DNA of 61,015 nt, counting the filler, from Hausera hauseri (Eukaryota), in NCBI GenBank assembly GCA_046269625.1. It is 10 parts of 10 records of this genome, joined end to end, with 100 filler letters (N's around TTAATTAATTAA, not from the genome) between each part and the next. Parts side by side here need not be neighbours in the genome. Positions count along the whole stretch, not along the records: positions 1 to 12,659 come from JBJURY010020008.1; 9 more parts are not named here. The stretch is one strand, 5' to 3'. Positions 3-44,205 of this stretch are shown piece by piece. Both the position numbers and the translations under genes were made by a program. The notes under the pieces were generated by a model that saw only the letters and a list, made by a program, of their open reading frames with translations, ran no database searches and was not told the DNA's origin. The number at the start of each line of letters is the position of its first letter. The stretch's first letter is position 1.

Positions 3-764
3 GGATGTAGAAGTGAAAACTACAATCCTATAATGATAACAGAAATACATCCAGAGGCAAGAGCACAGGCAACAGTGGAGAATATCCTAAGGGAACTAGA
101 ACCACGCGGAGTAGAAGAAATCTCTACGGGTGATACGCAAGATGTCACAGTTCAAACGGAAGCCAAGAAAAGAGGTAGGCCGAAAGGGACGAAAGTAAGT
201 GACATTCATAACAGAAAAGATAGAAACGAAGAAATAGTAAGACGATTATTATTATCAGGAACAAATGGCACTCTCGAATCAGTAGATATAGACCCACTAC
301 TAAGAACGTTATTGGCTAAGCTGCATACGTCATTTGCTTCATTTGACATGCAGGCAATAATCCCAGACGAACTGTTCACAACGATACGTAATAATATGTT
401 ACGAATAAGTAGGCAATTCTATGAAAACTTCGAGGAAGAACGGATAAATGAAACGCATGAACTGGATATTTTAGAAAAAATGTTTGCAACTGGAATTACG
501 CGCGAGAAAGCTCGAACGGTGATATCATATCTTCTATATAAAATAATAGTAATTAATCACCAAACTCAAAATCGAGAAGAAATTGAGCTGAATATAAGGA
601 CAGCCGTAAAGATTTTGAAAGATACGTTAGGCTATTGGGCTCAATGTAGAGGTGGATGGTTGACTAGCCTGATGACCAATATAATAAGGTCAGGGGAACA
701 AGGAAGAGTAACAGATACGCCAACTGCGACACAACCCAACATCTCTAGATCAAGCACAACAGGT
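3..764 (+). pseudogene. Polyprotein region upstream of the glycoprotein; helical, with AT-hook-like KKRGRPKG
   Basis: Frame is open from nt 3. Colinear with contig-7 ORF 43306-44397: EARAQATVENIL/KARTEQCVGQIM, KKRGRPKG/RPVGRPKK, LLYKIIVIN/LLYLAIKIN. Confidence 0.7.
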
Positions 765-2656
765 ATGTCAATGATGGAGATTATTCAAATCCTCCTAATA
801 ACGTCATTATTAATGCCAAAAGCTGTAGGTAGAGTAGCTTATGACTGCTCTAAACCTAGTGAAGGTCAAAAGTACTCTCTAGTGGATTTGGAGAAATGCC
901 CAGCTGACCCAGAACAGTTAACGACGACAAGTGGTCTGATATACTGGGTATATCAAGAATCCGAATTTATAAAAGGGAAAGTCAGGGAATGTTATGTAAA
1001 AAGATCATTTTTCCTGTTTAATTGTGCCTATTATTCTGGAAATTCCGCCATAACCGAGCCTACGACACCTCTCGAACCAATTATTATATCGGGAGCAGAA
1101 TGTCAAGATGTTTTTAAGATTGGTATCATAACTATACAAAACGCGCATATACCAGCAGTTCGAAATCGACTAAGTATACCAAAATATTTAAGGCAGGAAG
1201 AATAGATAAAACAATGGAAGGCACTTGCAAAGGAGTGGATTACGACGTGGGAGGTACTATTGCGCCTAGAACGGAAACCATAGAAGATTATCAGATCCAG
1301 TTAAAAGAATATGAAGTATTATTCGACTCACAGGCAAAATTGATGACGACTATAAGTGAGTGCGAGTATGATAACGACGAATGTGATACTGGGAAATCGA
1401 AAATGACATTGGAAACCACTGCAAGTAAATGCCAGTTGACGCTATTAAAGAAAGGAAAGTTTAACAAGACGGTAGGAAAAACGGCGGAAAAAGAAACAGC
1501 GACATATAAAGAAGAAACAAAGGAAGTGAAGATGACGGAAGTGGCTACAATCGTATATTCGAAAAATCCGGAAGACATGATGCGATTTAAAATCACGGGA
1601 GTAGCAACTAAGTGTAGTGAAAAGATATCAAAAACTAACTACAAGGGTATCTTAGCAAGAAAAGAAATACCCGGTGCGAAAACCAAAATAGAAAAGAAAG
1701 ACATAAAGTTGACGCAATATTTCGATAATAAGATTGACTTTCTAATCAATTACGTAAGGAAAGAAATTAGAGGTTTATATAGAGAAATAATAATGAATGA
1801 ATGTAAGCTGAATTAGGAAATAATGCGCAATAAAATGGCATTGGTAATAACGAATCTGGACATGGTAGAGCCCGTAATGCCCTTCGGCGACGGAATCATT
1901 GGTAGAGTGATTGGCGAGGTACTGATAACAATAGAATTCAAGAAGGTAAAAGTATCAATCAGACCAACAGAAGAAAACACAATGGAATTACCTGTGGTTT
2001 ACCATACAGAACCGAGATATGTGATGCCAGTAACCAGAATATTATTAGATATTATTGTGAAGCCTACTCCACTATACAATTGCACCTTCATTATGCCGCC
2101 AATGTTTAAGATCGACAACGATAAATGGATTAGAACGCCTAAAAGAGAAGCAGTGCCCAAACCGAAGACGTTAAGTTTGATTAATCTGCAAAAAAATCAA
2201 AAATTCAAACCGCTAACGGGAATATCTCAGGGAGGAATTTACACACAATAAAATCTAGAGGATTATCGACGAATGTTGTTGTTTCCCCCACAAAGACAAA
2301 GAGTGATAACAGAACTGACTAGGAGAGTAATGTGGGATGGCGAAGGATCACCGCAATGGGAAAACCTTATGGGTAAGGACTATCTAAAGAGGGTAACAAG
2401 AAACGTTATGGAAACGATGTGGGGAAAGTACTTATATTTTGGCCAAGCAGCTTCCGGTTTTCTAGCTATATGTTTTATTATTAGCGCCATACGGACAGTA
2501 TTTACGGAACTAGGTAAAGCCTGTGGAATACATGCAGCAGTAGGATGCTCATGAAAAATTTTAATAGCGGTAATACCAGCAGTAGCAAGTTGTTTCTTAG
2601 CAAACCATGATGCACGATGGAAGAGGAAGATACTACAAAGGAAAGACATAAAATAA
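765..2656 (+). pseudogene. Chuvirus-like (class III fusion) glycoprotein: internal signal peptide, ectodomain, TM
   Basis: Signal IIQILLITSLLMPKAVG|RVAYDC, then chuvirus-G-type motifs YDC..YSLVDLEKC, AGRID..GTCKG, YFDNKIDF..LYREII..EC, GEVL, ELPVVY, PPMFKI..W, GGIY, FP, WGKYLYFGQAASGFLAICFII. One frameshift at ~1160-1190; stops at 1814, 2249, 2552. Confidence 0.85.
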
Positions 2657-2896
2657 TCCCTGTATAGTATACATGATGATAATGATGCCGAATATAGTCA
2701 AATGAAGACAAAGAAACGAGTAGCTAGAATCAAACAATTAGTGCTAAAGACACGGGAGCCGAAGTATATACTAAAGTTAATAACTGACCTACCCCGTCTA
2801 GATCCTGTGGATGAATATCATAGACAGTTGTATAATGAACAACCGTTAATAAATCCTTCACCTCCCCGATACGTAGTATATACAGGACTATAGCCT

Positions 2897-3475
2897 ATGC
2901 GTCAAGTGCAACAGATAAAACAGAGTTTTGATGAAAATTTGACTCCCTATGAACACAAACCTAAGTACACTGTTGACGATAAAAATGAAAGACAACCATC
3001 TATAAGACCAGAAATAAAAATAGAGGTGAACGGATATCCAATGACGGCTTTACTAGACACAGGATCTACAACAACGATAATGGGAAGGAGCCAATTGCCA
3101 AAGGAATTAAAAAGAAAGTTACGAAGACCAACTACTACATTAATAAACGTAGGAGCATTCGGTACAGAAGAGGAAATCAAGATGGTCTTAGATGCCAAAA
3201 TTAAGATCGGTGAACAAATGTTGAAACATACTATAAGGATAGCAGATAATTTGACTAACGAGATTTTAATTGGGTGCGATATATTAAATCAACTGGATAA
3301 CGATTACATAGATATGAGAACGTGTCAAATTAAGCCGTTCGATGAAGATCGTAACGAGGGAATGGTTTCTATAACAAGAGACATTACGATTCCACCGCGA
3401 TCCGAGGTAGTGGTACATGAAAAAATAGAAAGTCGTGTTGTACCAGAGATTATATATTTTGAACCGTCCCCATAG
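2897..3475 (+). pseudogene. Retropepsin (aspartic protease) plus Gypsy PR-RT linker
   Basis: ALLDTGS (Asp codon 3056-3058), ILIGCDIL, IPPRSE linker. Confidence 0.92.
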
Positions 3476-3679
3476 GTTATTAAGAAATATAAATTTTTAA
3501 TCGCCCCTCACGTAGATAAAGTAAGAGATGGAAGAGTCCACTTACGAATTTGTAACACAACAAACAAAGAAAAACGATTACGGAAGTGTACCAGACTGGG
3601 AAAAATAACGATTACTGAAGAAATAATAAAAGAAGAAATCTGCCAAATAATATCAGATATATATAAAATAGAAAAGATA

Positions 3680-5183
3680 ATGACAGATAAACTGAAAAGG
3701 AAACCAGAGGAAGACAAAAGAAGAAATAAAACCACGAACATCGATTGGAACGAGAGATTACAAAAATGCGAAATTCTAAGTAATGAAGAGAAGGAGATAT
3801 TAATCGAATTATTGGAAAAGAATAATAGTCGATTTGCACAAACTGACTATGATCTAGGCACGATGAAGGTAATACAGCATGCCATTAAGTTGAAGGACGG
3901 CCAAGACAAGCCAATTAAGAAAAGACCGTATCGATTAGCATACGATAAAAAACAGGAAACACGTAAGATAATAAAAGAAATGAGAGAAAACGAGATAATC
4001 CGACTAAGCTGTTCCCCATGGACGGCGCTTGTGGTAATGGTCAAAAAGAAAGATGGAACTATTAGATTTTGCATAGACTATAGAGCCTTAAACAAAATAA
4101 CAGAGACTGATACATATCCCTTACCAAGAATTGACGCGATACAAGATAAACTACACGGATCGACCATATTCACAACTATCAATATACAAAAGGGTTATTG
4201 GCAAGTGGAGGTGAAAGAAGAAGATAAAGTAAAAACGGCTTTCTCAATTGGAGAAGGGCTATGGGATTTTAATAGGATGCCATTTGGATTAAAGAATGGA
4301 CCACCAACGTTTCAGAGAGGAACAGAACTTCTATTATTAGATGCTCCACATGCCATGGTATATATAGATGACGTAATAATAGCATCACCAAATTTTCAAC
4401 ATCTAAAGGATCTACAGGATCTTTTTGATAGATGCGAAATAATGGGTTTAAAGATAAATCCCAAGAAATGTTCATATGCACAAGCAGAGGTAGATTGCCT
4501 CAGACATAGTGTATAGACATGGTGTAAAACCTCAGGACAAGCTTTTAGGAAAAATAAGAAATTTTCCTAAGCCAGGTACAGTTAGAGAATTACGTCAATT
4601 TCTAGGTTTAACAAACTATTACCGAAGATTCATAAAGGATTTTAGCAACATTGCAAAACCGCTGTATGAATTATTACGTGAAGATCTAGATAAAGTTATA
4701 TGGTCGAACGAATGTCAAAAAGCTTTTGAATATTTAAAAGATAGACTATTAACGGCTCTCATATTAATCTATCCAGACATGACTAAACAATTTATTTTGG
4801 CAACAGACGCAAGTGATTATGGAGTAGGAGCAGTACTATCCCAGAAGGGCGAAGATGGAAAGGAACACCCTGTAGCTTATGCGTCATGAAAACTTAATAA
4901 GCATCAGAAGAAATATGCTGTAATAAAAAAGTTATTAGCAGTAATATTTGCCTTGGAAGTGTTTTCACCCTGTATTAGTGAAAATAAACCGATCTTAATT
5001 TATACGAATCATAGACCGCTCCAATGGCTAAAGCAGCATGAGAATCCAAATTGCAGACTACTACGATGGGCTCTAAAGTTACAACCGTACACATTGAATT
5101 TCCAGTATAAACCTGGATCGCGAAATGCCAACGCCGACTACTTATCGAAAATACCCGATAAATCAGAAACAAAAAGGCAGTAG
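3680..5183 (+). pseudogene. Reverse transcriptase and RNase H (frameshifted)
   Basis: RPYR, SPW, RFCIDYRALN, YPLPRID, RMPFGLKNGP, YIDD (4361-4372), RQFLGLTNYYRRFI, TDASDYGVGAVLSQ, KPGSRNANADYLS. Confidence 0.95.
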
Positions 5184-5200
5184 TCGCAGCTGTATGGAGT

Positions 5201-6296
5201 ATGGATGGATCAGTCGAGAAAATTAAGGCAAATCAAAATGAAGATGTAGAAATAAGGGCCATTAGAAAATACATAAAAGACAAAACCATATTAGTTGACA
5301 TAGAGTTAACCCGTCATCTGGCTCGATTTAGTGAAGCTTACGAGGAAAAAGAAGGATTTCTATATTTTATTAGCCAAAACGGACCTGCATTAGTAATTCC
5401 TAGAAAAAATAGAGCAGTTTTACTGACTCAGTATCACGATGGATTACTTGGTGGACACCAATCGGCCAATAAGACACTAAACAAACTAAAACGGAAATAC
5501 TTTTGGCTAACGATAATGAAAGACGTACAGGAATGGTGCGAGAGCTGCAACCTGTATGGTACCCGGAAAAACACGGGATCAAAATTCAAAGAGCCACTAA
5601 AGGTATGGGACAACCCTCCAGCGCCATTCGAGTTTACCGCAATGGATATAACGGGGCCATTACCGTTGACACGAAATGGAAACAAATATATTTTAGTCTT
5701 CATCGACTATTTCACTAGATGGGCTCTTGCTCTGCCAATGCCTGATATGAAGGCAGACACAATTGCTGAGAGATTTGTGGAAAATATAGTATTTAATTAC
5801 GGAGCCCCAAGGATCCTCTTGACTGATCAAGCTGCAAATTTAACTGGAACTGTAATGCAGTCCATATACGACATCCTGAAGATATTAAAATTACGATCCA
5901 CGCCGGGACATCCGGAGAATAATGGAATGGTTGAGATATATTGGAGATTTAAAAGGAAAATTAAAAACGGTGGTAAATACTAGGCAAGACGATTGGGACG
6001 AATATATCAATACGTGTTTTCGTAAATCGGACATCTGTTCATGAAGCTACTAAGGAGACACCGTTCTACTTAATGTATTTCCTGGATGCAAGATTACCGA
6101 TTGATCTAGATTTTAATGTAAAACCAATTTCCCATTTAATAGAAATAGAAGATTATAAGCAGTTGATGCAGGAACGTCTAAGTTAGATAGGCCCTATAAA
6201 GGACCGTATGAAGTAGAAAAAGTAGGTCTACCGAATATTTGCTTAAAAAAGAATAAAACCTTTGTAAAGGTCCACGTTAATAGATGTAAGCCCGCT
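5201..6296 (+). pseudogene. Integrase (degenerate HHCC, DDE core, GPY/F tail)
   Basis: HDGLLGGH..CESC, MDITGPLP, IDYFTRW, LTDQA, HPENNGMVE; YKGPYEV..VHVNRCKP at ~6190-6295. Confidence 0.92.
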
Positions 6297-6395
6297 GCCA
6301 AGGAGAGCAAACTAAGAAAAGGTGAAAAAGAGTCGGTATGTAGCATTAGTGACAAAGTAATCGAAATAGATTCAATAAATAAACTCCAGATAAAG

Positions 6396-7427
6396 AATGT
6401 CCTATTACTAATCATTATCTTGTTATCTCCAATAGTGATAGGACAGATGACGAATTCAGAAATCGAACGAGCAGAAATGAGACCTGCCATAGCTATACAA
6501 GAAGATTTGTTAATGAAAGCTTTACAATGTAAAATAACATATTCAGAGAAAGGACAGAAAGTAATAATTTGGAGTATGTTAAACCTAATGCCATCGACAT
6601 ATATAATGGGAATACACATGATACCTTGGCATGATAACAAAAGAGACCCTAATGAGAAACAGTACAGTTGTCTATTCCACGCAGGAACCAATCATACAGA
6701 ATGTCCGGTGCACGACTCAGGCGTTCACTACATATACCTTACGCTCATAAGGAAGGAAGGAGATTATTATGGAAGTCAGAAAACGCAATTTTTTAGATCA
6801 ATAGTAGTCCCTACTAGACAACAGATGAACGAAACGTTATTAGATGAAATAATACTCAACCAAATGATAGCAGGACCCATGGGATTCAAAAGCGGAAGAA
6901 GTTGCATTAAGATTATCACAATGATACGATTAGAAAATACCCGAAGAATGACAATAAAACTAATAGAAACAGTAATCCCAGAAGTCAGAGTCTGCAGGAT
7001 TAAAGGCAATCAACAACGAGTGTGTTGTACTGTTATGAGAGGTAAAATATACCACGTCTATTATCTTCTGTTTCGAAAAAGGAATGGTAAATTCAGATAT
7101 CCGGTAGAACTAAAATGACCCACAATGTTCATACGGTATAAAAATCAAAAACAGTACGATGATATACAAGAAAGAATCACGACGCCATCTGTGCAATCCT
7201 CGGCTGATAAAAAAGAGATGACTATCTTACTTAAACCCTACGCTTCATATTATCATCAAAAACGTTCCATATGGGATAACGTAACTATCATAGTGTTGAG
7301 GCTTGATTCGACCGACTCCTCGCATGATCAGAGAAACAATTTGAAAACCTTATCCATAATCACTTTGATATGTGAACCCTTTTTAATAACTAATAAATAT
7401 TTTGACATCTCAATTCTTAATTCTTAG
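6396..7427 (+). pseudogene. Second signal-peptide protein fused in frame after integrase (Cys-containing beta-rich repeats)
   Basis: The GPY/F frame reads without a stop into NVLLLIIILLSPIVIGQ. CLFHAG..EC and CRIKG..RVCC resemble contig-5 CSIHAG..PCC and CNFPY..RKCC. In-frame TGA at 7116-7118. Confidence 0.65.
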
Positions 7428-8086: not shown

Positions 8087-10481
8087 GGAAAAACAATTTT
8101 ACAGAAAGACACACAAAATTTTTACTTACTTATTCAATTGTTGCCTGTGTACTACGAATTAAAAGAATTTCCCTGTAATCATAGCAGGTTGAGTATAGGT
8201 TTCACTATACACTTTAACGAATAATTTATTAGTTAACTAAGATATCGGATATTCGAAGCTGTCAAAGAAAAAAGAAAGTATTATCTAAAGACAATTATTC
8301 CAAATTACAGAACTATTACTCTTTGTCCCAAATTTATCTTTGATAAAATCTACATGGCTAAACGACGAACAGAAGAGTTAAATGACCAGCAATCCACAAA
8401 TGGTAAATATTTAATTATCCCATACTTGTCGTTTAAACCATTTGTGAATTTTGTATATATAAATACATTTTTATAAATGAAAATTATGGTCTAATAAATT
8501 ATAATTGATTACCACTATGGTGGCCGAAAGGTAGGTATGTCCCAAAGAATTAGACGGTGTCAGACGAAGAATCGGCAACGACACAGCGATAGAAACAAAG
8601 TTCGTTCCGGGTAACTACGACTCGAAACCTGCCGCGTGACAAGAGATTCAATCATGCATGAAGATGTAGAACGACTTATGTGGGAGAATAGTAATGTCCG
8701 GAGCTGAGGGAGTCGCGATCTAATTAGCACGCGTGGACGAAATGATTCGAGGCGAAGTACAGATGCTAGACAGATTAGTAGTAATGATTAGTGTTATTGT
8801 ATCTATGCACGGTCACGTAGTTGTCAGATATAATTATTTCGTTATATTGCCATTGCACATAATTAATTTTAAATATGTTCTGGTTAATTATCGTTATTTA
8901 GAATTTATTATTTTATGTTTTGATAGTCCTTCAGGATTGTAGAGTATCAGTGTAGATTGTGAACCCTTTTACAAAATTGTATGATTAGAACTTGATAATT
9001 TTGACCTATTATAGTATTTTCTTCTAGTATGTGTGGGAATGATCGAGTAATCATTAGTGGGTTAAAGTTTTAATGTGTAAAAGGGAATTTAGAAAGGTCG
9101 TATAATGCTCAGATATTTTTGAACAATTATTGTCATTTTGAATTTATAGTTTTATATTTTCGTAAAGTTTTTAGGATGTGTAAAATATCAACAGATTGGG
9201 ACTTCGCTTATTGGCATGAATTTGGAGATATTGTCGTAGTGCGTTGTCTATTGCGTGACGGAATGGTTGGTCAATTATCAACAGAATAAAGTTTTGTATT
9301 GTAAAGATAATCTATAAAGGCTGTAGAATTATATAAAAAGTTAAGAAATTCATCTTGTGCCCAGGATTAGAATATAAAAAAAAAGTTAGGAGTCTCTGAA
9401 ACTTTATAATCTGAACATTTTAGAGGTGGATACCACCGGTAAAACTTATTATCTAACACTAAAAATATTAGTCTAATACATGATTAACTAAATATGCGAC
9501 ATGTTAACCCCATAAAATCAAGGAATGAAAGAACTAAATGTCTGAAGAGATTATAAACGAAAGATTAAATAAAAGAATAATCTCGAGTATTCGGCACATT
9601 TGTATTGATGACGGAGGTTATCGTTCTCTTATTCAAAGGATAATATAAGAATGGAAGACATATTAAATAAGTGTGGTTAAGAGACGATTTGAGAATAAAG
9701 AATACGCTGAAATTTAATGCGATAAAATGTTTAGTTCTGATCACACTTATAATAAACATGAAAAAAGGGGTAGCCCTGAACAAAGGAAATATGCACTACA
9801 AATAATAAGAATGTATCATACACTTTGGGAGAAGCAATGTAAATAGACCAATCTTGTAGAGTTTATATGGATGTATCGTGTACATAAATGAACCCTAGTC
9901 ATGAAGTTGTCAGTAAAGATATTAGTGCATAATTATGGCCACACTATAACAGACCAAAGGGCCAGCAAGGATACAACAGATAAAAATTTATAATGGAGGT
10001 TGTCAAAATCTTCGTACTGGAAATTTTGAATATTATAATAATCTAGAAAAATTATTGGTATACAATAGAACGTGTTATGCAGGTACATATTCTATACGAT
10101 AAGCGCATCCTAGGTGATGAAATAATAAGAAGAAACCATGGAATGATTCCATGAATATTATTAAACCTGTTGAAATTAGATTCATAATCTTATTACTTAC
10201 GACTTTGTTCGATAATGCTAAAACAAGGAAAGAAGGAATAATAATAGGTTATATAATAAAAGTGGTGCGAAAATCTGGTAACAAGAAAGAACTATTTGGA
10301 CATAAAATTTAGAAGTAAAGGGCGCTGGATCTTAACATGGGTCAGACCGCCCCAAGAACTCACGATTCTAAAGGATGATAGACGTAATGCCCTACAAGAT
10401 TAACAAGGACAAAAATAATCATTTATATGTTAGTGTGCACTGATTTGTAGAAATACTATAGCCATAACCTAACATATAAAC

Positions 10482-10499: not shown

Positions 10500-10547
10500 C
10501 ATGCTCGAGGGTTAAATTGATATAATTAGTAGAATTATTCTTAACAG

Positions 10548-10868
10548 GTGGTTATTGTGCATATTTTATCAGATATCAGAACCAAGACCACAAAATGTCC
10601 AATATGTTATGACACCCTCGGACTACGATATGCCTTATTCCGGTGCACACACATCATGTGTACCAAGTGTGCTGACCAGTGGTTGTCGAAGAAACAGCAC
10701 TGTCCCTTTTGTAGAAGAACAACCAGCAGCTACAATTGCCTAGGAGTCACCACAGTAGTGATCCTTGATGATGAAGAAGAGGATGAAGAGATAACTGTTG
10801 CAATTAATGAATACCCAGCCGATCTGTATGTAGTCGGCCCAAATGGACTAGTATATATGGAGATATGA
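10548..10868 (+). CDS. RING finger protein with acidic tail
   Basis: CPIC..CTHIMCTKC..W..CPFCR. The frame starts directly after acceptor-like ttcttaacAG (10546-10547). Confidence 0.85.
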   Translation: MVIVHILSDIRTKTTKCPICYDTLGLRYALFRCTHIMCTKCADQWLSKKQHCPFCRRTTSSYNCLGVTTVVILDDEEEDEEITVAINEYPADLYVVGPNGLVYMEI

Positions 10869-10985
10869 GATTACAATATATGTTTATTTCTTGAATTGTT
10901 CTAGTAAAGGGTATTTCATGATTATTAGAGGAAAGGATAATTGATTAAAATAATAATTCAATAAATTAAATAGCAATAGTTTTAG

Positions 10986-11221
10986 GCTGTGCTATCTGCA
11001 AGAAACTTACAGCAGCTTATAATGAAGAGGAGAATTCCTGCCCATTGTGCTACCTCGTCGAAAAAATGAAACAACGAGAAGATCTATTCGAGTGTGCATA
11101 TTGTGGAGAGGAGGCCAATATAAGTATTATGGTTATGGACTCGAACTGTTTTTTGATATGTCCTATCTGCTCCCTGTCGTGGAGTGATTTGGAGGAAATT
11201 GGCAAACTGACTAATTTGTAA
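10986..11221 (+). CDS. Small four-CxxC zinc-binding protein/exon (absent from ORF track)
   Basis: After ttttAG the frame reads CAIC..CPLC..CAYC..CPIC..stop, with AATAAA overlapping the stop. Confidence 0.55.
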
Positions 11222-11431
11222 TAAAAGTAAATTAACTGCTGTGTCTCACGAAATTTGGTTTTGCATTACATGTGTGCCCTAATAAGTGGAATCATGAATT
11301 TAAAATGATTAACGATATATAGAAGTTGTTTTATTGGAAGAACCTGTTATTTGTCAATGAATGAATACTTGTAATAAACTATTACCATTTAAGGTAACGA
11401 AAACAGAAATGAAAATAGAAGTGAAGATAGG

Positions 11432-11854
11432 ATGGAACCGGAAAAATGCCCAATCTGCCTCGAAGAGATAATGCAAGAAAAAACTACACTGCCGTGTAAA
11501 CATAGTTATTGCAGTCCTTGCATCAGCATCTGGTTGGGGGAGCACAACAATTGCCCCTGTTGCCGAAGAGATTGTACTTTCTGTTGGGTATGCTCCAAAT
11601 TAATAGCAGAGGATTTGGCCACCCTATCATGTAGGCATATGTTTTGCCAGTCATGTATACTTGAATACCTAACTTGTTGCCAATTGTGCCCCTATTGTTT
11701 GGAAACAGTAGATTTTTACACTACAGAAGGAGTGATCACGTATCTGAATGTGAACGGTCAAACTTCTATCGCTTTAGTGATTGATGAGGACGACGGCAGT
11801 TGGCCAGAAGCGTGGAGAAATCCACAACCATACACACTGCTGGATATAAACTAA
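11432..11854 (+). CDS. Tandem double-RING protein
   Basis: CPIC..CKHSYCSPC..W..CPCCR, then CWVC..CRHMFCQSC..CPYC. AATAAA follows at ~11867. Confidence 0.88.
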   Translation: MEPEKCPICLEEIMQEKTTLPCKHSYCSPCISIWLGEHNNCPCCRRDCTFCWVCSKLIAEDLATLSCRHMFCQSCILEYLTCCQLCPYCLETVDFYTTEGVITYLNVNGQTSIALVIDEDDGSWPEAWRNPQPYTLLDIN

Positions 11855-11915
11855 AAACAATTTATTAATAAAATTAATTGTGATAAATCGTTTTATTCCC
11901 TTTTATTATTTTAAG

Positions 11916-12199
11916 ATCTGAACTCCATACCCATACTATCACATGGATTCCGACAAAGGACAATACACCAATATTCAGTCTATAACCCAAATGGAGTTTT
12001 TACCACAATAGGAAAGGAATGTACCATTTGCCTTAATAACTATTCAATCAAGCCCGTACAGCTGGTCTCTTGTAAACACCAGTTTTGTCGCTGCTGTATA
12101 AGGGAATGGTTTCTCCAAAATAACACTTGTCCGACGTGCCGTACCATTAATAAACTATTCTTGTACGAGAACAAATATTATACAATAAAGAATTTATAA
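11916..12199 (+). CDS. RING finger protein/exon (absent from ORF track)
   Basis: After ttattattttaAG the frame reads GKECTICLNN..SCKHQFCRCCIREW..TCPTCR to TAA at 12197-12199. Confidence 0.8.
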
Positions 12200-12261
12200 A
12201 TAGAATTTGTTTAAAGTTTTGACTTTTAGAAATATAATGTATTGTAGATGAGATACAGAAA

Positions 12262-12659
12262 ATGAAAAAAGTTCAATTTCAAACTCCCAGATACAGTGAA
12301 TATACAAGACCAGCACAACCTAATACGGTACAGTACATGCTGCATTACCAAAATAGACAATTTGGACCGTCAGCGTTTATTAAAAGATTGACAAGCTACT
12401 CCAGAATGACAGTATTGGACAACTCCATGAGAGATACACAGAACAGGAAAATATCATTCCTCGAATATCCAAATTCACCCGTTCCAGGGGAATTAGCACA
12501 ATTATATGCCAATGCCGGACTATTCCGAACTCCAACAGGACAAATAATATGTATATATTGTCAGGGAGAATTTCAGTATGAACAGATAAAGGATCGACCC
12601 AAAGAAAAACATAAGAAATTACGCCCAACTTGTCCTTACTCGTTGAACGTGGAAGTAAG
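12262..12659 (+). CDS. BIR-domain (IAP-like) protein, truncated by contig end
   Basis: RKISF.EYP..LYANAGLF..CIYC..D.P.EKHKKLRPTCPY matches the BIR C-x2-C-x16-H-x6-C pattern. Confidence 0.82.
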
Positions 12660-20381: not shown

Positions 20382-23010
20382 TTGCAGCAGTACAGCAAGT
20401 TCCACACACTTCAACGCAGCACACTGGATCATCAGCGCAGCAGCAGACATTCCAAATACTCCACCAAAAGTCAAAGGCAGCGAGCAGTTGATATCGCAGC
20501 GTTGAAGAAAAAAGTCCGCAGATACGTTATTGCTGCAACTGATCAAACAACGCTCCCTAAGTTTCTGGAATGTACAAAGGATGAAACCATGGGGATTCTC
20601 CAAGACAACATGGTAGAGATCAAGGCCCTTAAAGTCAACTTAAAATTAGAGGCCACATACACCAATGTTGATGGCAAATAATCGAATAGGGCCCTCAAGA
20701 CTGAAAATAAGCCAATATTGGAAGCCACCAATATTTCAGAATGGATGCATGAGGAACGCACGAAGCTGATATGTGAAGCTTAGGAAAGCCAGAACAAGAA
20801 GAGAGGATGGATTCTGGCAACCATAAAGAGATTGCTTATCTTTGTGCACAAGTACTCCCCATGCAAGGCAGCTCCTATATACAGCTTCCGGAATGGATCG
20901 TTAAGAAAACCATACATCAATGTCCATAATGATGATTCAATGTGTTTCAAATACTCCATTCTTTCAAAACTCGTACAGGATCAGAAACATGCATGTCGAG
21001 TTTGGTTGTATAATGATCAACAGTGCAATTATGATTTCCAATGTATTACGTTCCCACCATCCTTAGATGAAATCAAGAAATTCGGGCGACTTAACAATAT
21101 ATCCATCAATATCTTTGGATTAGAGGAAAATAAATTCTATCCGCTACAAACATGTGATGCCGAATTGGAAGATCATAGGGATCTGCTCCTGCTAAACGAT
21201 GAGGAAAAGAGGCATTTCATATGGATCAAGAACCTTGAGCGTCTAGTGAGATCCCAAATTATAAAAGATGACTATAGAATTGAGATCTGCAAACGACGTC
21301 TGTCCCATTTCAGTGGCAAGTTTGCTCTGGAGAAACTTACAGATCACAACATATACTGCAACAAAAATATTGCATCAGGACAGAATTTCCCAAGGATGAC
21401 CATATAGAATTTAGAGTTCGAAAAGAAGCTCAAGGTTCCAATAGTCATCTATTGCGACTGAAGCAATCTTGAGTCCAGTTCAGAGTTGCAGTTCGAATCC
21501 GAAACAAAGCAGCACAACAGCATACCAATATCACGAAATCTCTTCATGTTGTATGTATGCAAAAGGACTGGACAAGGAACCATTTCTATTCAGGGGTCCA
21601 AATGCAGCAGCACATTTTATCAAGCGATTAGAAGAAATCGTCCATAAGATGGAAGTTATGTTGAAGCAACATAAGTTTTTGGATAAAATGACCATGTCAA
21701 AGGAACAAGAAGAATGGCGTGAGGCAACAACATGCTACTTTGCTCCAAATCCTTCACAGCGGAGAATCACAAAGTCAGGGATAACTGCCACTTTACAGGC
21801 AAATATCGAGGCGCAGCCTGCAACAATTGCAATCTACGATGCAGAACAATGACATTCGTGCCTGTAGTATGCCATAATCTCAGTGGTTATGATTCCCATT
21901 TCACAGTCCAAGAATTGAGAAACATTGAAGGTAACATCGATGTGATTCCCAACAGTGAGAAGAAATGTCACCTTTACGAAACATGTTGGAAAAGTCAGAC
22001 TCCGTTTCATAGACAGTCTCCAGTTCATGTCTTCACTTGACAGTTTAATGAGGAACCTCCCAGCAGAAGAACTGGAGGAGACGAAGCGGCTCTTTCCAAT
22101 TACATTTGAATTGCTCAAGAGGAAAGAAGTGTTTCCCTATGAATAAATTGCATCACGGGGATCACTAGATAAAACATCATGGCCGGCCAAGAAGGACTTT
22201 TATAGTCAACTCTCAAACAGTGATATCAGCGATGCGGATTATCAACACGCACGAAAGGGTCTAGGAAGCATTCAAATGTAGGACAATAGGAGAATATAGT
22301 GACATATCTCAAAACCGACGCGCTGCTGGTGACAGATGTCTTTGAAAGCTTCCAGAATGCCACACTTACAAGCCACAGGCTGGATCCAGCTCATTTTTTC
22401 ACAGCTCCAGAAATGAGTTGGGCAGTTATGCTGCGATATACCGGCATTAGACTGCAGATCTTGAAGGATTATGATATGATCCTCATGATCGAGCGAGGCA
22501 TTAGAGGTGGAATATGCCAGGCCATTCACCGGTATAGTGAGACCAACGAGTACATAGCCAAATATGACTCATCAAAGCCATTCTCGTATATCACATACTT
22601 GGATGCCAACAACCTCTATGGATGGGCAATGAGCGCCCCACTGCCGTATGATAACTTCAGATGGGTGAAGAATCAACAGAATCAACATCGAATTGGTCTG
22701 TTATTGGAAAAGGACCAAGAAGCTGATTGCTAAACCGAACTTCCACAACAGCACGATATATGCTAAAAATCTGGTCAGTATTCATATGCTAAAAACATCG
22801 CGAGTTCAACAAGCCAATTTATGTTATCAAAGAAAGTCAGCTTCGCTGACTGAGAGTTCTGCAAGAACAGACTCATAATATCAGAAATGAAGCGCATACA
22901 GTCTCATGACCATCAAACACAAATAGTAGCGCTGCAGAAGAGCTTGGACTGATTCGACGACAAACGGCACAATATGAAAGACGGAATCTACATACTGCCA
23001 CACGCATATG
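20382..23010 (+). pseudogene. Protein-primed family B DNA polymerase (Polinton/adintovirus type), fragmented, internally deleted
   Basis: NVHNDDSMCFKYSI, RDNCHFTGKYRGAAC..CNL, HNLSGYDSHF, RFIDSLQFM, FPYE, YLKTD..DVFE, RGIRGG, YLDANNLYGWAMS, then an abrupt jump to KLIAKPNF and terminal FDDKR. Confidence 0.9.
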
Positions 23011-23513: not shown

Positions 23514-23761
23514 GGAATCTTTGGCCTGATACTAACACTGACACAGAATATGATAGTGATGCAACGGTTATGTAATTTTGTTGTTTGACATAACGCTAAA
23601 CATTTTTATAAGCACAATGTGAACCATGTTTATGATAAATACATGTAATGATTTTTGGTATNNNNNNNNNNNNNNNNNNNNNNNNNNNNNNNNNNNNNNN
23701 NNNNNTTAATTAATTAANNNNNNNNNNNNNNNNNNNNNNNNNNNNNNNNNNNNNNNNNNNN

Positions 23762-25059
23762 TAGTCACCAAGGTACTTACCTTCTGCCATGCTTCACCCC
23801 TGTTTTGCCATCCGGGCATAAGTAAAACTACGGATATAATTAGGTCACAGTTCTGGTGGGGTTCCTTAGCTAAGGACGTTAGAGAATTCGTTGGGTCATG
23901 TATCCAATGCTCCCAGGCCAAACCCTCTCGGCGTCCTCCAGCGGGTCTCCTAAGGCCACTACTGATTCCTTCACGACCATGGTCTCACATCTCTATGGAC
24001 TTTGTTACTGGCCTACCACTGTCTGGGGGTAAGACTACCATTTTGACTGTTGTTGACAGATTCTCCAAGATGGTTCATCTGGTTGCACTGGAGAAGTTAC
24101 CCTCGGCTAAGGAACTGAGTGACATTATGATAAAGGAGGTCTTTAGACTCCATGGCCTTCCTAAGAACATCGTGTCCGACCGTGGTCCTCAGTTCATTTC
24201 CAAGTTTTGGTCGGAGTTTTGCACCACTCTCAATATTGAACTAAGTCTCTCTTCAGGTTTTCACCCCCAGACCGATGGCCAATCAGAACGAGCCAACCAA
24301 GAACTGGAGACCCGCCTGCGTATACTCTGCGGCAATGATGCAACCAAGTGGGCCAAGAATCTTCCCATTGTTGAACATGCGATGAACTCACTTCCTTCCA
24401 GCGCCACAGGTCTGTCCCCTTTTTATGTGCTATATGGTTTCCAACCACCAATCTTTGCCACCCAGGAACGAGCAGCCATGGTTCCATCGGCCTATCAGGC
24501 AGCCCAAAGATGCCAAAGGATCTGGAGAAGAGCCAGGCAACAACTATTAAGGTCCTCCGCAGTTTACACACGATCCTCCAACCGTCACAGAATTCCAGCG
24601 CCACATTATCAAGAAGGACAGAGAGTTTGGCTGTCAACCAAGGACCTACCCCTTCGTGTAGACTGCAGGAAACTGGCTCCCCGATTCATCGGTCCCTTCC
24701 CTATTTCCAAGGTGGTAAACCCAGTAGCTGTCAAGTTAAAACTCCCCAGTTGCATGAGAATCCACCCTACGTTTCATGTGTCCCGAGTCAAACCGGTCCA
24801 GTTTTCTCGATTCTTGCCCGCCTCCAGGCCCCCTCCACCCGCCCGACTCATCGATGGCGGCCCTGCTTTCACTGTTCGCCGCCTGATACGTTCTCGACGC
24901 TGGGGCAGAGGCACCCAGTACCTCGTCGACTGGGAGGGATATGGTCCTGAGGAAAGGTCATGGGTGCCAGCCCGGCACATCCTCGACAAGACCCTTATCA
25001 GTGATTTCCATCGCGACCATCCTAATCAGCCGGGTGGTCCGTCAAGAGCCGGACCGTAA
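23762..25059 (+). CDS. Chromovirus (sushi-like) integrase plus chromodomain, intact frame
   Basis: [57 protein letters not shown]; GC content is higher than in the other contigs. Confidence 0.95.
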
Positions 25060-29640: not shown

Positions 29641-31390
29641 GAACAAAAAGCTTTCGACGAGATGAAGAAAATATTAAGATACCCAGACTTTAACTTGCCC
29701 TTCATAATCAAGACGGACACCAGTAAAGAAGGTATTGGATATGAATTAGCACAGAAAAGAGAAGATGAAGAATTAGAGCACCCGATTGCTTATGGAGGAC
29801 GTTCCTTAAAAGAGGCCGAGAAAACCTATTCTGTTACTGAATTAGAAACTCTAGCTGTAAAAGAAGCACTTCAACACTTCATCGTTTATGTGTACGGGCA
29901 AAAGATTATAATTGTCACTAATCACAAAGCTGTTACGACCTTAAAGGGACGAGCAAATAATCCGACATGCAGACTTAACAGATGGACAGAAGAAATCTCC
30001 AGATATAATATTGAATTCCAGTATAAACCAGGGAATAAACAAGTAGACGCTGACGCATTATGAAGATTAAAGATCAAAACCAGTACAATTGCTGTAATGA
30101 AGAAAAGCAAACTCGAAGAGATAATAGATCCTCAACGCGCCTTGACAATGGATAAAGCAATTAAAATTTTGACAGAACAGAGAAGGGATAAAGTCATCCA
30201 ACAGATTATGGAATTTGTTAAAAAGGAAGTCATACCGAAGGGACGACAGTTACAGAAACATTTACACAAACACGGACATAAATATTGCGTCTTAAACGAC
30301 AAGAGCAACGAAGATATTTTATATTACTAGCGAAAAGGAAGAAAACTGATAGCTATTGCCAAAGATTTACGAACCGAAGTGTTAATGTCAGAGCACGACT
30401 TGTACTTAGCCGAACACATGTATTGGAAGAAGACATTAGAAAGGATAATGAATAAATACTTTTGGCCTAGTATCTATATTGATGTGAAGAATTGGGTGAA
30501 TGCTTGTGAAGTATGTGCGACTAAGCAGAAGAAGACGAAAAATTACATGGCCAAATTAAGACCAATTTATGTACCCGACAGGCCCATGCAAACCATGTCG
30601 ATGATATCGTAAGACCTCTTCCTACAACTCACAAGAGCAATAAGTATATTTTGACGTGTATTGACCGATTAACTCATTTTGTTGAGTTAATAGCATTAAT
30701 CGATGAAAAGGCCAAAACCTTAGCAGAAGCCGTAGTAAGAAAAATTATTTGCCGATACGGCCCCCCCAGACCAGATACTCAAGGATCGAGGAAGAAATTT
30801 TACAAGTGAATTATTCAAGAAAATCACTAAAATATTTTAAATCGAACGATTAGCGACTACTGGAATGGTGGAACGAATGAACGCAACTGTTATACGTATA
30901 TTATCGACAGTAGTAGCAAAAGACCGTAAAGATTGGGACGAATTTTTGGAAGGGATTCAGTTTGCTATTAATACCACACCATATCCAGCAACAGGATTCA
31001 CTCCATTTTTCATGATGTATGGACGCGCAGCTGTGTTGCCCACGGACTTAGAAATGACGCCATACACAATCAATCCCAAAGATTTAGAACAAAATTTCGC
31101 AGAAGTATTACAAACGCGATTGCAAAAGTGTTGGGAAATAGCCAAAAAATTATCCCAAGAATGTCAGGAGCAGTTTAAAAAGCAATATGATAAGAAGCCA
31201 AAACCGCATTATATAGAACAAGGAAATTGGGTTTATGTACATTACCAGGTAGCCAAGAAAGGCACCTTATTAAAATTAACTCGCACAGGCAGAGGACCGT
31301 ACGAATTACCAAGGTTACGCCAACCATAGTATTTATTAACAAAAATGGAAAGGAAGAAATCGAATCAGTACAGAGTTGTTAAGACAGAAA
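29641..31390 (+). pseudogene. RNase H and integrase
   Basis: KTDTSKEGIG, ELETLAV, TNHKA, KPGNKQVDADAL; H..AEH..CEVC; GMVERMN; TGFTPFFMMYGR; RGPY. Confidence 0.92.
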
Positions 31391-31449
31391 TACGGCCAAA
31401 TAAAAATTATAATCTACGTCAGCGTGAGATAAAAACTTCTTCAATAATT

Positions 31450-32712
31450 GCTAGACCGATATTATACGTTCAAATAGTTTTAGCATTATCGTTAATTGCT
31501 TTATATATTCCGAAAGCTAACTCCGAGCTGTCCAAAGAAGACGCAGGAAAACAAAAAGATACACAAAGTTTAAAATCAATGAGGGCCTACGGTGCATATT
31601 GGGAAAATCCGTGCGTTTGGTTTAAGGCAGATGACCCTGTTAAAAGCCGTGTAAAATTCCAAGTATTATTCATAGACCTAGGCAATGCTGCCCTAAGGTC
31701 GTGCAATTTTCCATATTGAGCAAAAAGGAAGTGTTGTATGTTAAATTTTGATTGAACATATACATACAAACTGCAAATGACCTACTATAATATACGTGGT
31801 ATTCAAGTTCATATACTTATGGAGCTCAATATAATCACGCCGAAACAGAATGAAACAAGTCAGGCTAAAACAGAGGAAATAATTCGAAGTACCGATCCGA
31901 ATATACAAATATTGGACAAGAACATTAACGGAATCTTCATAAATAAGGAAAAACAATGCATTCAAATAGATGCTCGTACAGGAGTAACTCTTAACCAGGA
32001 AATTAGTATTGTTTTCGAAGCAGTAAACGGAAAAACCCCGAGAATAAATTACTGTTCTATTCATGCCGGTGTACAACGCCCATGTTGTAGGTTACCAGTG
32101 AACCAAGAGTTGAAATTAAAATTCGACTTATGTGAAGTAAGGCCAAATAAAACAAACAAACATTTTCGGACTTACTATCCAAAGAATAGGATATGGAAGG
32201 TTCCGGTAAAAACAAACACTAAAATGCCGACTACTCGAGTTAGTGTCATTACCAGACCCGCTACGTCGGGCAATGAGCCTAAAAGAGAATTAGGAGGTAT
32301 ATCTGTGAAATATTCGGCGCAACAATCTAAGATTGTGTTCTTTGTGGAGGAAAAACAACATTACGACATACATATAAGTTGTCGAACAACCTATAATAAT
32401 CAAATTGTAACATTACTTAAAAACACTTATCAGACCGAATGTAGTTTGCTAAAACCGCAATCTGATTACATAGTACAAATATTTGCAGAAAATAAACAAA
32501 ACCAAACAATTACATTGCGTACCTTAGACGAAATTCCCGCAGAACCGCATATGTATGAAAATATAGATGATGAAATCACAACTCCAGTCACAACACAAAC
32601 ACCAATAGGATTAGCTACACTGCCGATCGTATTTATCTCTGCACTGTCAACGTTTTTTTCTTATTATATTAATTGCGATTTCTCGATTAGTTACCAAAAA
32701 CTGTTATTCTAA
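31450..32712 (+). pseudogene. Type I membrane protein with signal peptide, Cys repeats, fibronectin type III-like domain and TM
   Basis: ILYVQIVLALSLIALYIPKANS signal; LKPQSDYIVQIFAEN (FN3 L-x-P-x2-Y-x-V-x3-A-x-N motif, ~32440-32495); Thr-rich stalk; IGLATLPIVFISALSTFFSYYI TM. Confidence 0.7.
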
Positions 32713-32884
32713 GCGCCATAAAAATTCAGAACGGGAATTAAGGGAATTGGAAAACCCTGTAGATCCGTATGATAAAATAACCTGACAATTACAGATCAGG
32801 TTATTTTGTCATTAAACAAAGGAATGGTTTTGGTTTAAAACCATCCTTTGTTTTAAGATTAACCTTTATATTCTCATTTTCAGA

Positions 32885-33964
32885 TTGGTAAGTAGTCAGA
32901 ACCAGATGAACCCGAACCGACTTAGAATCGACACCGAGGAAACTACGAGTCGACTTAGTATCCACAAATTCTTGCAGCGATATGTGACCGTACGGATTCC
33001 GAATTCAAAGGCCATCTATCGGCAAATCAATACAGAATTGCAAGGAAAGAACTACGTTCAATGCGGGAAAGTTGGTGAGATACCAAACGGTCTGAAAGGA
33101 ACGACCGAGGAAGCCATAGCTATATATTTATATGCCGGGAGAGAGAATAAGGACGCCAGAGCATATCCTTTGCAACGGATCACCCAGTACCAGACAAACA
33201 AGGAACAGAAGATATATGTATATTTGGCCGACGGAGAAATCTATTATCGGCTGAAAGACCAAAAATGGGACTCTTTCCAAGGAAGGCAAAGCCGGTTTAG
33301 CATGTTTGAATTTGACACTAGAAATTTCCATAACTACAATCTGGAATTTCGTGTAGCCGCCTTACCTGTGAAAATGATGGTTGAAATAACTGAAGAGGAG
33401 ACAATATCCATCTCATTACCGCCCTTAGAGTTTAGGCAAAGGCCTACCTAAGACGAACAAGACACACATCTACATTCGTTCAGATTGGTAACCAATGGCA
33501 GGAGTATCAGGATTGCCGCAATAAACTATGGAGAAGGAGAAGAAGGAAATTATATCCCGATCGAAATATCCATCCGAGAAGAAAACGGGGCCAAAGTTTA
33601 TTCGAAAATCATTAACCCGAAAAGGAAAGTACTAGAAACTTATGCAGAAGTTACCGGGATTAAAAGAAAACAATTAAATCATGGAAAGGATTCTAAGATA
33701 GTGCAACAGGAAATAGCACAGTGCCTCTACGGATACGTTTTAGTGGGGTATCAAATAGAGAGGATGATAAAAAAATTAGCCATACCGGTAACACACATAG
33801 CCGGAGTGAGAGAGATAAAAACCCACCCGACTGTTACGAGACAAATGGAGATCAAGGTCAAAGAGAAGAACTTATCTACCACCAACCATGGAGAGCCGAT
33901 TCAAGCTTATGGTAGAAGCCATGGCTTGAGGAAATATAAAAATAAGCAGATTGTTGACCGGTAA
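32885..33964 (+). pseudogene. Accessory ORF with REX4/ISG20-like DEDDh exonuclease fold, catalytic acids lost
   Basis: Acceptor ttctcattttcAG at 32882-32883; one in-frame TAA at 33449. ISI.EENG.KVY..IINP...V......VTGI....L..G.....VQQEI...L.GYVLVG matches the REX4 pattern; AAINYG replaces A-x-DCE. Confidence 0.6.
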
Positions 33965-34182
33965 TCAAAGATCCCAATATCTAAGGGACATAAATGCTGG
34001 ATTAAACTGGAAACACGAATGGATTCCCAGTAACTCGGACAGAAACTTCGGAGTTTTCCCAAGCTGGAAGGAATCAGTACACGATACAGAAGCGCTACCG
34101 TCCTTACTCACAACCAAGAAGCGTCGAGACAACACCGAAGTGGAATTACTAAATAACTATACAAGGATTAAAAACGGAGAAA

Positions 34183-34521
34183 ATGGAAGATAAAGTACGT
34201 ACAGATGGAAAACGCAGTACAAGTTATGGCGCCACGGCAGATAATAATCTATTTAAGATACCTGAAGTTCCTCGGAAATGCATAGAAGAAAAACATAGAA
34301 TTTCAGAAATCGAAACAGGAAAAACAACGAAAAGGAAAACCGCCTTTTTCGATTACTTATTCAAGAAGAAAAGTAAAGAAGGAGAAAAAGGACTGAAAGA
34401 AGAACCCAGACAAGACAGAAAAGATTCAAAATCAAAACAACCAGCAGAAGAACCCTCAAAACCAGACATGCAGTCCCGAATTGAGAAGTCCACGAGAAAC
34501 CCAAGCAAACAGAAAGAATAA
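34183..34521 (+). CDS. Lys/Glu-rich ORF, possibly frameshifted tail of the preceding ORF
   Basis: Low-complexity and basic; AATAAA overlaps the stop. Confidence 0.35.
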   Translation: MEDKVRTDGKRSTSYGATADNNLFKIPEVPRKCIEEKHRISEIETGKTTKRKTAFFDYLFKKKSKEGEKGLKEEPRQDRKDSKSKQPAEEPSKPDMQSRIEKSTRNPSKQKE

Positions 34522-35008
34522 ATAACAGAAATAAACGTCCTACGGTAGAAGACATCCACGGAATATGTTCACTACACCACTACGGCAGATTATCCCAGGA
34601 TGCTAATAGCCACAGAATATTATAGCAAACAAAAAATTACGGAGGCAATATTTTTTGTAAAATTAATGCCTGCCAGACAAGTTTTTTGAGAACACGTATG
34701 TCTGGGAAAATCCTAAGATCGGAAAATACGTTGCTCCGATATTTCAGTCCAGACGAAAAGGTAAAATCTTAGTCCCTGTAGATAAGTCAATAAAACTGTT
34801 ATTAAAGAAGCAATATCAAAAATACCGATCGACTGATAAAGTTCCCGATTAAGATCGAGACACTATCAGCGATAGGACTCTAATACCTGTGGGATGCGAT
34901 CCCAAAAAGAGTTCCATAAATCCGAAATAAAAGAGAACCTCTGCTTATTTATACCAAGACGAAGACGGGTTGGTAATAGAACCCATAGAAATTATGCTAA
35001 GAGTTGAC

Positions 35009-35416
35009 ATGGACGACGAAAATTGGGAGAAAGAGGAAAATCAATGCCCAGTATGCGAGGCAAATTTGAAATAAGGGTACGTAGTGTTAAATAACCTCGA
35101 CTGCCGGCACAAATATTGCAGGGATTGCTTAGAGAAATGGACATTAGATAATGGGAAGACAATATGTCGTGTGTGCAGAGCGGAGGTTGCCGACTTAAAA
35201 TATTACCCAAACAGTAGCTACACTAGTATAGTTAGAATAAAGCCCTACCACAATTATGAACTCGAAACAAATCCCAGAGAAGATCAACCAAGTACCAGCT
35301 CTGGACCCAGTCTAAGGAGACCTATGGAATTGTTACGATGGCCTCGTTCTCACGGCTTCTCTCCTGACGCAATGGGCACATCCGAGGATGCCGTTCAGGG
35401 AGAAGAAATGTTGTAA
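35009..35416 (+). pseudogene. RING finger protein overlapping PPT and LTR start
   Basis: MDDENW..QCPVC (stop at 35072) ..CRHKYCRDC.EKW..CRVCR in one frame. Confidence 0.8.
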
Positions 35417-43270: not shown

Positions 43271-43983
43271 TGATTCATTTTTCCGATAGCCAACATCCGT
43301 CGTTGTCAAATTACGCAACATATCATCACGTTTATTACTGGTCCGCCTGTCTTTTCTTTGTCATATAGCCTTGACCAATTTACTTCGCATGGCAATCTTC
43401 TTGCCGTTTTTCGTGCTAAACTTATAGATCTATTGACTTCATTCTCTCGATTAGGGTTTATTTTGATAGCTAAGTAGAGCAACATTTTTCTCAATTCCTC
43501 ATTGGTGTTTTCTACCATTATCTTTTCAATTACCAATTCATCGGTTAAGTTACTTTTTGACAGTTTAAAACATGAACTCCTCATCGTTTTAGCTGCTTCG
43601 AAAATTATCCTTTCTTTATCATCTAATACATCACCCCGAAGGCTCGAATAATTTACAATTCGTATTAAATTCTTCATTAACTCACTTAATTCCTCATTGT
43701 TTGTACTGAGAGTCGGAATTGACATCTGTCTCAGTTCTCTAATCATTTTTCCATTATAGTCAACTTTTTCTCGTGTCTTTTTAGGCCTACCGACTGGACG
43801 TTTTAGTCTCGGCCCTTTTGTTGTTATTTTGCTCAGTGGTACTAGGTTTATATCGTATTGTTCCTTGTCTTCATCCGTTTGTAAATACTTGAAATACATT
43901 GCAGTGTCTCGAACTCCCATAATCTGTCCTACACATTGTTCTGTCCTGGCCTTACACATGGCTTTTTCCTTTGTCTGCTCGTT

Positions 43984-44205
43984 AACTATCGTTGCTACTA
44001 TCCGATTTATTTCGACAGTGATAATCCCGATATCTATTAGTTGTTCTGGGTCGTCGAGTATTCGACCTCTAAAGTAAAATCTGTAAATTAGCTTATTTGT
44101 TCCGCCATTGCTTAATAACCACTCTCTTACATCATTTACATAGGAATATGTAGTTAACTCACATTCTTTTTCGTCCATCCATTCGGAAAATACCATTACT
44201 TTTAT
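43984..44205 (-). other. Ubiquitin-like domain within the polyprotein (ORF 43306-44397)
   Basis: Gapless manual alignment to ubiquitin residues 1-61 with identities at V5, E16, V26, G35, R42, F45, G47, L50, D52, L56, D58, I61. Confidence 0.65.

Follow-up and report, generated by a model that had tools for sequence, protein, structure and literature searches.

The region that follows the integrase tail of a decayed Ty3/gypsy element in Hausera hauseri is best explained as what remains of a gene for a second protein of an element resembling Burro; the gene continues in frame from the integrase tail, and its product, predicted to be a signal-led type I membrane protein with fibronectin-like (FN3) repeats, would likely act in cell attachment beside a separate fusogen (probability of this reading roughly 0.55). 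That the region is a real element gene for an FN3-type surface protein is very probable, that the protein is made in frame with pol is likely, and attachment is slightly favoured over other roles.

The window, that is, the whole 61,015-nucleotide stretch of DNA analyzed, is composed of ten contigs. An artificial linker of 100 bases (N44, a 12-base stop in all frames and N44) stands between each and the next, at 12660, 17172, 23662, 29541, 36272, 40853, 46361, 51288 and 56756. Because the joins are artificial, the two copies of the post-integrase gene, copy A and copy B, are not genomic neighbours. Copy A is on the first contig (1-12659), which begins inside the polyprotein. It is decayed, with many stops and frame changes along the element, and its gag, env and pol frames are not intact. 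A repeat search found no long direct repeat pair, and no tRNA genes were found in the window. Two public runs (X1 and X2) contain copy A as contigs. The features of both copies are as follows, with P0004 denoting a related database protein.

396..659, plus strand: copy A, Bcl-2-like helical domain, weak match (PF00452, E 0.022, 15.7 bits, under the cut-off of 31.4).
771..2614, plus strand: copy A, class III (Monjiviricetes/gB-type) fusion glycoprotein, decayed (PF24664, hydropathy).
771-830, plus strand: signal-like run of the copy A fusogen (hydropathy).
2447-2512 and 2546-2614, plus strand: two C-terminal hydrophobic segments of the copy A fusogen (hydropathy).
3005..5914, plus strand: copy A pol, decayed, with protease, RT, RNase H, integrase zinc finger and integrase core (Pfam RVP, RVT_1, RT_RNaseH, Integrase_H2C2, rve).
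6173..6186, plus strand: frame change that parts the GPY/F tail from the integrase core (X1 contigs diverge at 6173 and 6179).
6180..6398, plus strand: integrase GPY/F tail and linker, without stop and without Met.
6399..6443, plus strand: internal signal-like run, residues 81-95 of the frame (9 strongly hydrophobic residues followed by Pro -5, Val -3 and Gly -1, counted from the putative cut).
6522..6809, plus strand: domain 1, a beta-sandwich of predicted FN3/Ig-like type holding a Cys pair (single-sequence model).
6870..7115, plus strand: domain 2, carrying the C..C-x9-CC repeat (putative, from homology to FN3 domain 2 in P0004 and copy B).
7116..7118, plus strand: in-frame stop, at which most family contigs differ.
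7119..7293, plus strand: same-frame continuation with a Ser/Thr-rich linker; no other part of the ORF is shared as widely (X1 depth).
7294..7427, plus strand: end of the frame in copy A, without membrane helix (contigs leave at 7293; hydropathy).
31294..32712, plus strand: copy B, GPY, signal-like run, three-domain ectodomain, Thr-rich stalk and hydrophobic end in one frame.
31459-31509, plus strand: signal-like run of copy B (hydropathy).
32605-32661, plus strand: hydrophobic end of copy B (best 19-mer 1.86).

The pol domains of copy A lie in the order PR-RT-RH-IN (3005-5914, Pfam), which is that of Ty3/gypsy (Metaviridae), and the spacer of ~130 aa between PR and RT has no Pfam dUTPase match. 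The fusogen that the first-pass annotation had placed 5' of pol is borne out: PF24664 matches four ORF pieces at 771-2551 with E-values from 1e-6 to 6e-19 (1e-10, 1.2e-6, 6e-19 and 7e-14, Pfam), upstream of the protease, and from 1118 to RT the sequence keeps a single frame, interrupted by in-frame stops only. PF24664 is equated here with the gB type through the text on Chuviridae-like glycoproteins in PMC13524379. The weak PF00452 match directly precedes the fusogen, a position as in Burro. Summed contig depth, which is not copy number and is read as an abundance contrast only, is ~10,000 over the fusogen and pol versus ~30 at 8441-10128. This contrast marks a very abundant repeat, and the element is multicopy. 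The element is a multicopy Ty3/gypsy whose Monjiviricetes-type fusogen precedes pol. As a candidate for budding, the PPxY-like motif at 2861-2872 was rejected, since 7132 of 7148 X1 depth units differ at 2861.

Downstream of copy A lies a RING and BIR (IAP) cluster (10545-12659, with RINGs at 10545 and 11393 and a BIR at 12238-12657, E 1.2e-8); it is multicopy, but ~1.7 kb of low-depth DNA separates it from the copy A ORF. A third contig carries, at 41411-46280 on the minus strand, an acidic region and further frames, after which come a signal-like run and a fusogen of Monjiviricetes type (E 1.6e-41); there is no Bcl-2 match upstream of this fusogen, and pol is absent from the contig. The contig (40953-46360) was considered as another FN3 copy and ruled out, tblastn and profile searches finding only copies A and B. 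Elsewhere in the window, another contig has a chromovirus-type integrase with SH3 and chromodomain (23710-25059), fragments at 20784-22733 match DNA polymerase B (E 5e-5) and are possibly of Maverick/Polinton origin, and a 16-base tandem array stands at a contig start (17272-17620).

After pol, a stop-free frame of 319 aa (6159-7115) contains, with GPY at residue 15, what is taken by eye to be the GPY/F tail; Pfam gave no match for this tail. The earlier proposal of an in-frame fusion to the integrase C-terminus is upheld in that the tail is continuous with the ORF. However, tail and integrase core do not share a frame in copy A: frame 2 holds the core (5162-5983), frame 1 a later piece closed by the stop at 6184-6186, and frame 3 the tail. 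Copy A also lacks ~50 codons that precede GPY in copy B. From the tail the frame is open up to 7115, and an in-frame stop follows at 7116-7118, within the 6180..7427 interval of the first-pass annotation. The signal-like hydrophobic run reported after the tail is confirmed at 6399-6443. Its 15-residue hydropathy of 3.14 is the highest among the 77 stop-free window frames of at least 100 aa, and is matched by 2 of 1000 shuffles of the copy A ORF. The first Met of the frame is at 6447, downstream of the run. Cleavage of signals follows the (-3,-1) rule, on which basis a cut would fall after the run; small residues at -3 and -1, together with hydropathy, fit a signal in copy A, copy B and P0004 alike.

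Two Cys-paired repeats follow in copy A, C-x10-C at 6669/6702 and C..C-x9-CC at 6903/6993/7023/7026. Near the end of the frame the best 19-mer hydropathy is 1.09, versus 1.86 in copy B and 2.26 in P0004, and there is no C-terminal membrane helix. Copy A retains domains 1 and 2 and the linker and is without the third domain and anchor, and 7294..7427 is probably not the C-terminus of the family protein.

In copy B, integrase, GPY, run, ectodomain, stalk and hydrophobic end follow one another in a single frame, with in-frame stops at 31327, 31717 and 31753. The frame is thus continuous from GPY/F to the run in both copies, the integrases of which are 26.5% identical. The first-pass annotation had called the repeats of copy A similar to those of copy B. 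Two repeats are present, and C..C-x9-CC is common to copy B and P0004, in each of which it occurs twice, but direct similarity between A and B is weak (BLASTP 24.6 bits, E 0.002); their local alignment score is reached by 2 of 1000 shuffles and their semi-global score by 181 of 1000. A profile of A and B searched against 1.84 billion representatives found a sole match, P0004 (479 aa, E 2e-28), and no named host protein. P0004 is an unnamed singleton on a 4.9-kb contig, recorded as a stand-alone protein, with its own Met directly before the signal. It matches copy B strongly (34% identity, 429 columns, E 3e-89) and copy A more distantly (22% identity, 152 columns, E 1e-7), with a second, internal match between the first Cys cluster of P0004 and the second of copy A. 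With a profile built from P0004 and copy B only, the copy A region is the best non-self match among 60 window frames (E 6.6e-4, the next being 0.69). This profile scores 14.2 bits on copy A, and 14.0 bits without the signal, versus a maximum of 7.5 in 1000 shuffles. The likeness of A and B is convincing only via P0004. The homology of A, B and P0004 is remote but real, and the Cys-paired repeats are two copies of a C..C-x9/10-C(C) module.

Other searches returned no further relatives. Word-index protein searches gave 0 of 739 candidates for copy A and 0 of 536 for copy B, locus scans for relatives of the ORF gave 0 of 139 metagenome contigs and 0 of 114 viral contigs, and PDB sequence searches gave nothing under E 0.27. 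A plasmid search with RT found three distant, uninformative records. One of 87 loci in an integrase scan (L001) was dropped, as its translation matches a short peptide only and has no integrase context.

The signal-like runs of the copy A fusogen (771-830), the copy B FN3 protein (31459-31520) and P0004 (residues 15-35) all end in Pro-Lys and small residues, as if these signal cassettes shared an origin. In P0004, residues 455-479 have basic residues after the membrane helix, and the tail ends in Tyr-x-x-hydrophobic, presumably a sorting motif. The FN3 gene of copy B is followed, at 32816-35416, by a frame of 211 aa, another that resembles an exonuclease (RNase_T, E 0.002) and a RING finger.

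Structure prediction was not distinctive for copy A alone. Its single-sequence model has one beta-sandwich (pLDDT ~60-77) and a poor second half, with low confidence for domain 2 (6870..7115) and a low mean pLDDT of 50.4. Foldseek of this model against viral and PDB sets gave no match at E <= 0.001; the best VIA matches were an IL-9R complex (Z 7.9) and fibronectin FN3 (Z 7.8), and Atlas leads, all below 0.9, were to Ig/FN3-like domains. P0004, modelled on the three-sequence alignment, has three beta-sandwiches and a helix at 430-465, also at low mean pLDDT (52.9). Foldseek of this model gave 318 matches at E <= 0.001 (best 2.2e-9), and nearly all of the matches listed are tandem-FN3 proteins. 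VIA Z scores were 8.1-8.6, with residues 185-284 (domain 2) matching fibronectin FN3 at Z 8.6 (rmsd 2.3, 83 aligned) and domain 3 at Z 8.4, and Atlas gave fn3 in nine of the best ten rows (scores 0.83-0.85). Tied fold matches include IL-9R, IL-20R and gp130. Pfam fn3 has no match in A or P0004, and copy B matches NDNF FN3 under the cut-off (E 0.01-0.02). The copy A model also drew C2-domain rows, which were discounted in view of the FN3 matches of the better-supported P0004 model. As for a canonical env in this place, the post-integrase protein has no Pfam fusion match, and the fold matches listed are FN3-type, with no fusion fold among them. The tandem FN3 fold is carried over from P0004 to copy A on the strength of their homology, and the family product is predicted to have a signal, three FN3 domains, a stalk, one membrane helix and a short tail.

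The defects of copy A look copy-specific. X1 contigs leave the copy A sequence at 6173 (22 contigs), 6179 (13) and 7293 (28), position 7116 in the stop differs from copy A in 1187 of 1207 X1 depth units and in 41 of 41 in X2, and no indel at a share of at least 25% is listed for 6180-7293, two single-contig cases excepted; for these reasons, the frame break, the stop and the missing end look private to copy A. Over the ORF, summed depth is ~800-3400 in most bins (minimum 247), which is far under that of pol, compared to the ~30 of 8441-10128. Depth drops about sevenfold at 6362 (~6000 to ~800), which argues that many family members are without this ORF or have a very different one, and rises about threefold at 7130-7321, to ~2800-3400 in X1. 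From this pattern, the N-terminal domains vary most among family members. Thirty-three variable sites, from 40 listed of 262, fall inside the frame. In 23 of these at least 90% of depth differs from copy A, and these private sites are spread evenly over codon positions (9, 8 and 6), whereas in the ten that vary within the family the third position predominates (7 of 10); this hints at selection, the sample being small and selected (40 of 262 sites). The post-integrase ORF is a real, family-level feature of the element, met here in a broken copy.

Another reading, in which the ORF lies beside the integrase tail by chance (as a piece of a host gene or an unrelated repeat brought into frame through the decay of copy A), could appeal to the breaks that flank the region on both sides in copy A and to the weak direct A-B similarity. 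It is largely refuted, and very improbable: the ORF is multicopy, with contigs spanning 6317-6516 from the linker into the ORF, a homologue occupies the same place and frame in a lineage with 26.5%-identical integrase, and the one match among 1.84 billion representatives is P0004 rather than a host protein of known name. Less easily dismissed, if unlikely, is that a third ORF, separate from pol, encodes this FN3 membrane protein and is expressed from a start codon of its own or from a spliced or subgenomic RNA, the shared integrase frame being incidental or one of two routes. The env of Drosophila gypsy is expressed in this way, as a separate ORF from spliced or subgenomic RNA. The Met of P0004 right before a classical-looking signal and its record as a stand-alone protein agree with such an ORF, although P0004 may itself derive from a broken copy, since gene callers begin at the first start after any stop. 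In A and B alike, no Met immediately precedes the run. Copy B has three weak acceptor-like AG sites between GPY and the run; at that threshold none occurs in 6180-6400 of copy A. The fused form was not found among longer candidates (0 of 4973), and accessory ORFs of Burro may stand alone or join the polyprotein (PMC6431247, available text); against this, both distant copies are in frame, and 40 codons would be open by chance, in non-coding sequence of the composition of the flanks, with p 0.035.

A further alternative, judged slightly less likely again than a separate ORF, accepts that the FN3 protein is made as described but has it act on the host cell, as a cytokine-receptor-like decoy, a re-infection blocker or an adhesion molecule between donor and target cell. 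With their Cys pairs the FN3 domains are reminiscent of the ectodomains of cytokine receptors, and the tied fold matches include IL-9R, IL-20R and gp130, but cytokine receptors rank no higher than fibronectin or adhesion-molecule folds. Further cargo of a host-modulating kind (Bcl-2-like, RING and BIR) is present on the contigs. In-frame synthesis with the structural polyprotein would favour packaging. Compared with pol, the N-terminal part is shared much less widely, which host conflict would predict, but fast change fits receptor binding equally. Attachment is the role preferred here: the element already has a class III fusogen, and stalked FN3 repeats are binding modules. With an in-frame attachment protein as the preferred reading, the two surface proteins postulated for the element are favoured by a post-integrase protein that is element-borne, homologous to that of copy B and represented by an intact relative modelled with signal, three FN3 domains and helix, but no intact polyprotein has been found: none of the 4973 candidates of 840-2395 aa carries the FN3 protein, which is weak evidence, as a Burro-sized protein would be longer. 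In outline the first-pass idea of two surface proteins stands, narrowed to an FN3-repeat protein for the second, whose attachment or immune-modulating role is putative.

A mechanism can be proposed in which the element is translated into a single polyprotein. Of its two internal signals, the first would send the fusogen into the ER lumen and the fusogen anchor would return pol to the cytosol, which needs only one of the two C-terminal hydrophobic segments to span the membrane; because the fusogen ends in two such segments, of which perhaps only one spans, the side on which pol lies is an assumption. The second internal signal would then send the FN3 protein into the lumen, and signal peptidase would free the N-termini of both ectodomains. 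Polyproteins of flavi- and alphaviruses likewise switch between cytosol and lumen by internal signals. Pol would stay tethered at both ends until the element protease cuts, and for that reason capsid, enzymes and both surface proteins would gather at one membrane in a fixed ratio. The FN3 protein would bind a host surface protein and the class III fusogen would perform entry. Separate attachment and fusion proteins are known from paramyxoviruses (H, HN or G with F) and herpesviruses (gD with gB). Neither in sequence nor in fold did the FN3 protein show a link to those attachment proteins, and here, in contrast, the enzymes would lie between the two surface proteins. It is a tentative idea, with rather less than an even chance, that there are LTR retroelements with a two-protein entry machine of this kind, namely one signal-cut polyprotein that yields a class III fusogen from ahead of pol and, from behind integrase, a fibronectin-like protein for receptor binding, in which the fast-changing FN3 protein sets the cell type entered, e.g. 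stem cells.

The closest known system is that of the giant Burro/GYPSM1 elements of planarians, which also have MATH, ankyrin and Smc domains and which combine Bcl-2-like, mononegavirus-like env and PR-RT-RH-IN domains with BIR and RING cargo in one huge polyprotein (PMC6431247); env in frame before pol was published for Burro in 2019 in the same paper. Copy A shares with Burro a mononegavirus-like fusogen upstream of PR, the PR-RT-RH-IN order, very high copy number, and decayed fragments with stops and frameshifts. The sub-threshold Bcl-2-like match in the corresponding place and the BIR/RING cargo nearby, which may or may not be linked to the element, are possible further likenesses. It differs in that no membrane or FN3 protein is named after integrase in the available text of PMC6431247. 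The dUTPase-like domain found there by HHpred between PR and RT has no Pfam match in copy A. The element works like Burro, its membership of Burro is likely, and from the layout alone a flatworm host is probable.

Errantiviruses with a GAG-ENV-POL layout and a gB-type fusogen have been catalogued in Nematoda, Bryozoa and Platyhelminthes, with up to 215 copies in Schmidtea (PMC13524379). They share with copy A the gB-type fusogen upstream of pol in Ty3/gypsy, but in the accessible text of that paper they have one surface protein only, and the C-terminal extension discussed is a chromodomain. That catalogue is of intact copies only, and the frames of copy A are not intact. The same source describes env-bearing Ty3/gypsy elements with one surface protein and leaves the choice of target cell open for most. 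The word 'fibronectin' has no occurrence in the texts of PMC6431247 and PMC13524379, figures excluded, and 'accessory' has none in the text of PMC13524379. Thus the layout with fusogen before pol is already published (PMC6431247, PMC13524379), and a post-integrase FN3 protein was not found in the portions of the literature searched. More generally, that literature yielded no second or FN3 surface protein in an LTR element; its scope was text, and figures, as well as Grohme 2018, Sacco 2022 and Jurka 2007, lie outside it and may annotate the region. Troyka (PMC12440569, as far as its text was available) was set aside as not relevant.

Other systems are alike in part. LTR elements of bdelloid rotifers have an extra ORF3 after pol, including small membrane ORFs and DEDDy exonucleases (PMC5408684, text in part). 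The likeness is in varied post-pol cargo, copy B having an exonuclease-like ORF after the FN3 gene, but the bdelloid ORF3 is separate and replaces env, and is not a second surface protein beside an upstream fusogen. Drosophila Sas has three FN-III repeats and one membrane helix, and aims vesicles with Gag-related dArc1 capsids at Ptp10D-bearing cells; its tail binds dArc1 through a tyrosine motif (PMC10289811, text in part). The likeness of Sas to the FN3 protein is functional only, Sas being a host gene with added VWFC domains.

If the preferred reading is true, the FN3 protein would explain part of the unannotated half of the Burro polyprotein, and would be a concrete receptor-binding candidate for env-bearing Ty3/gypsy elements. 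If it is the attachment protein, the spread of such elements from soma to stem cells would become directly testable.
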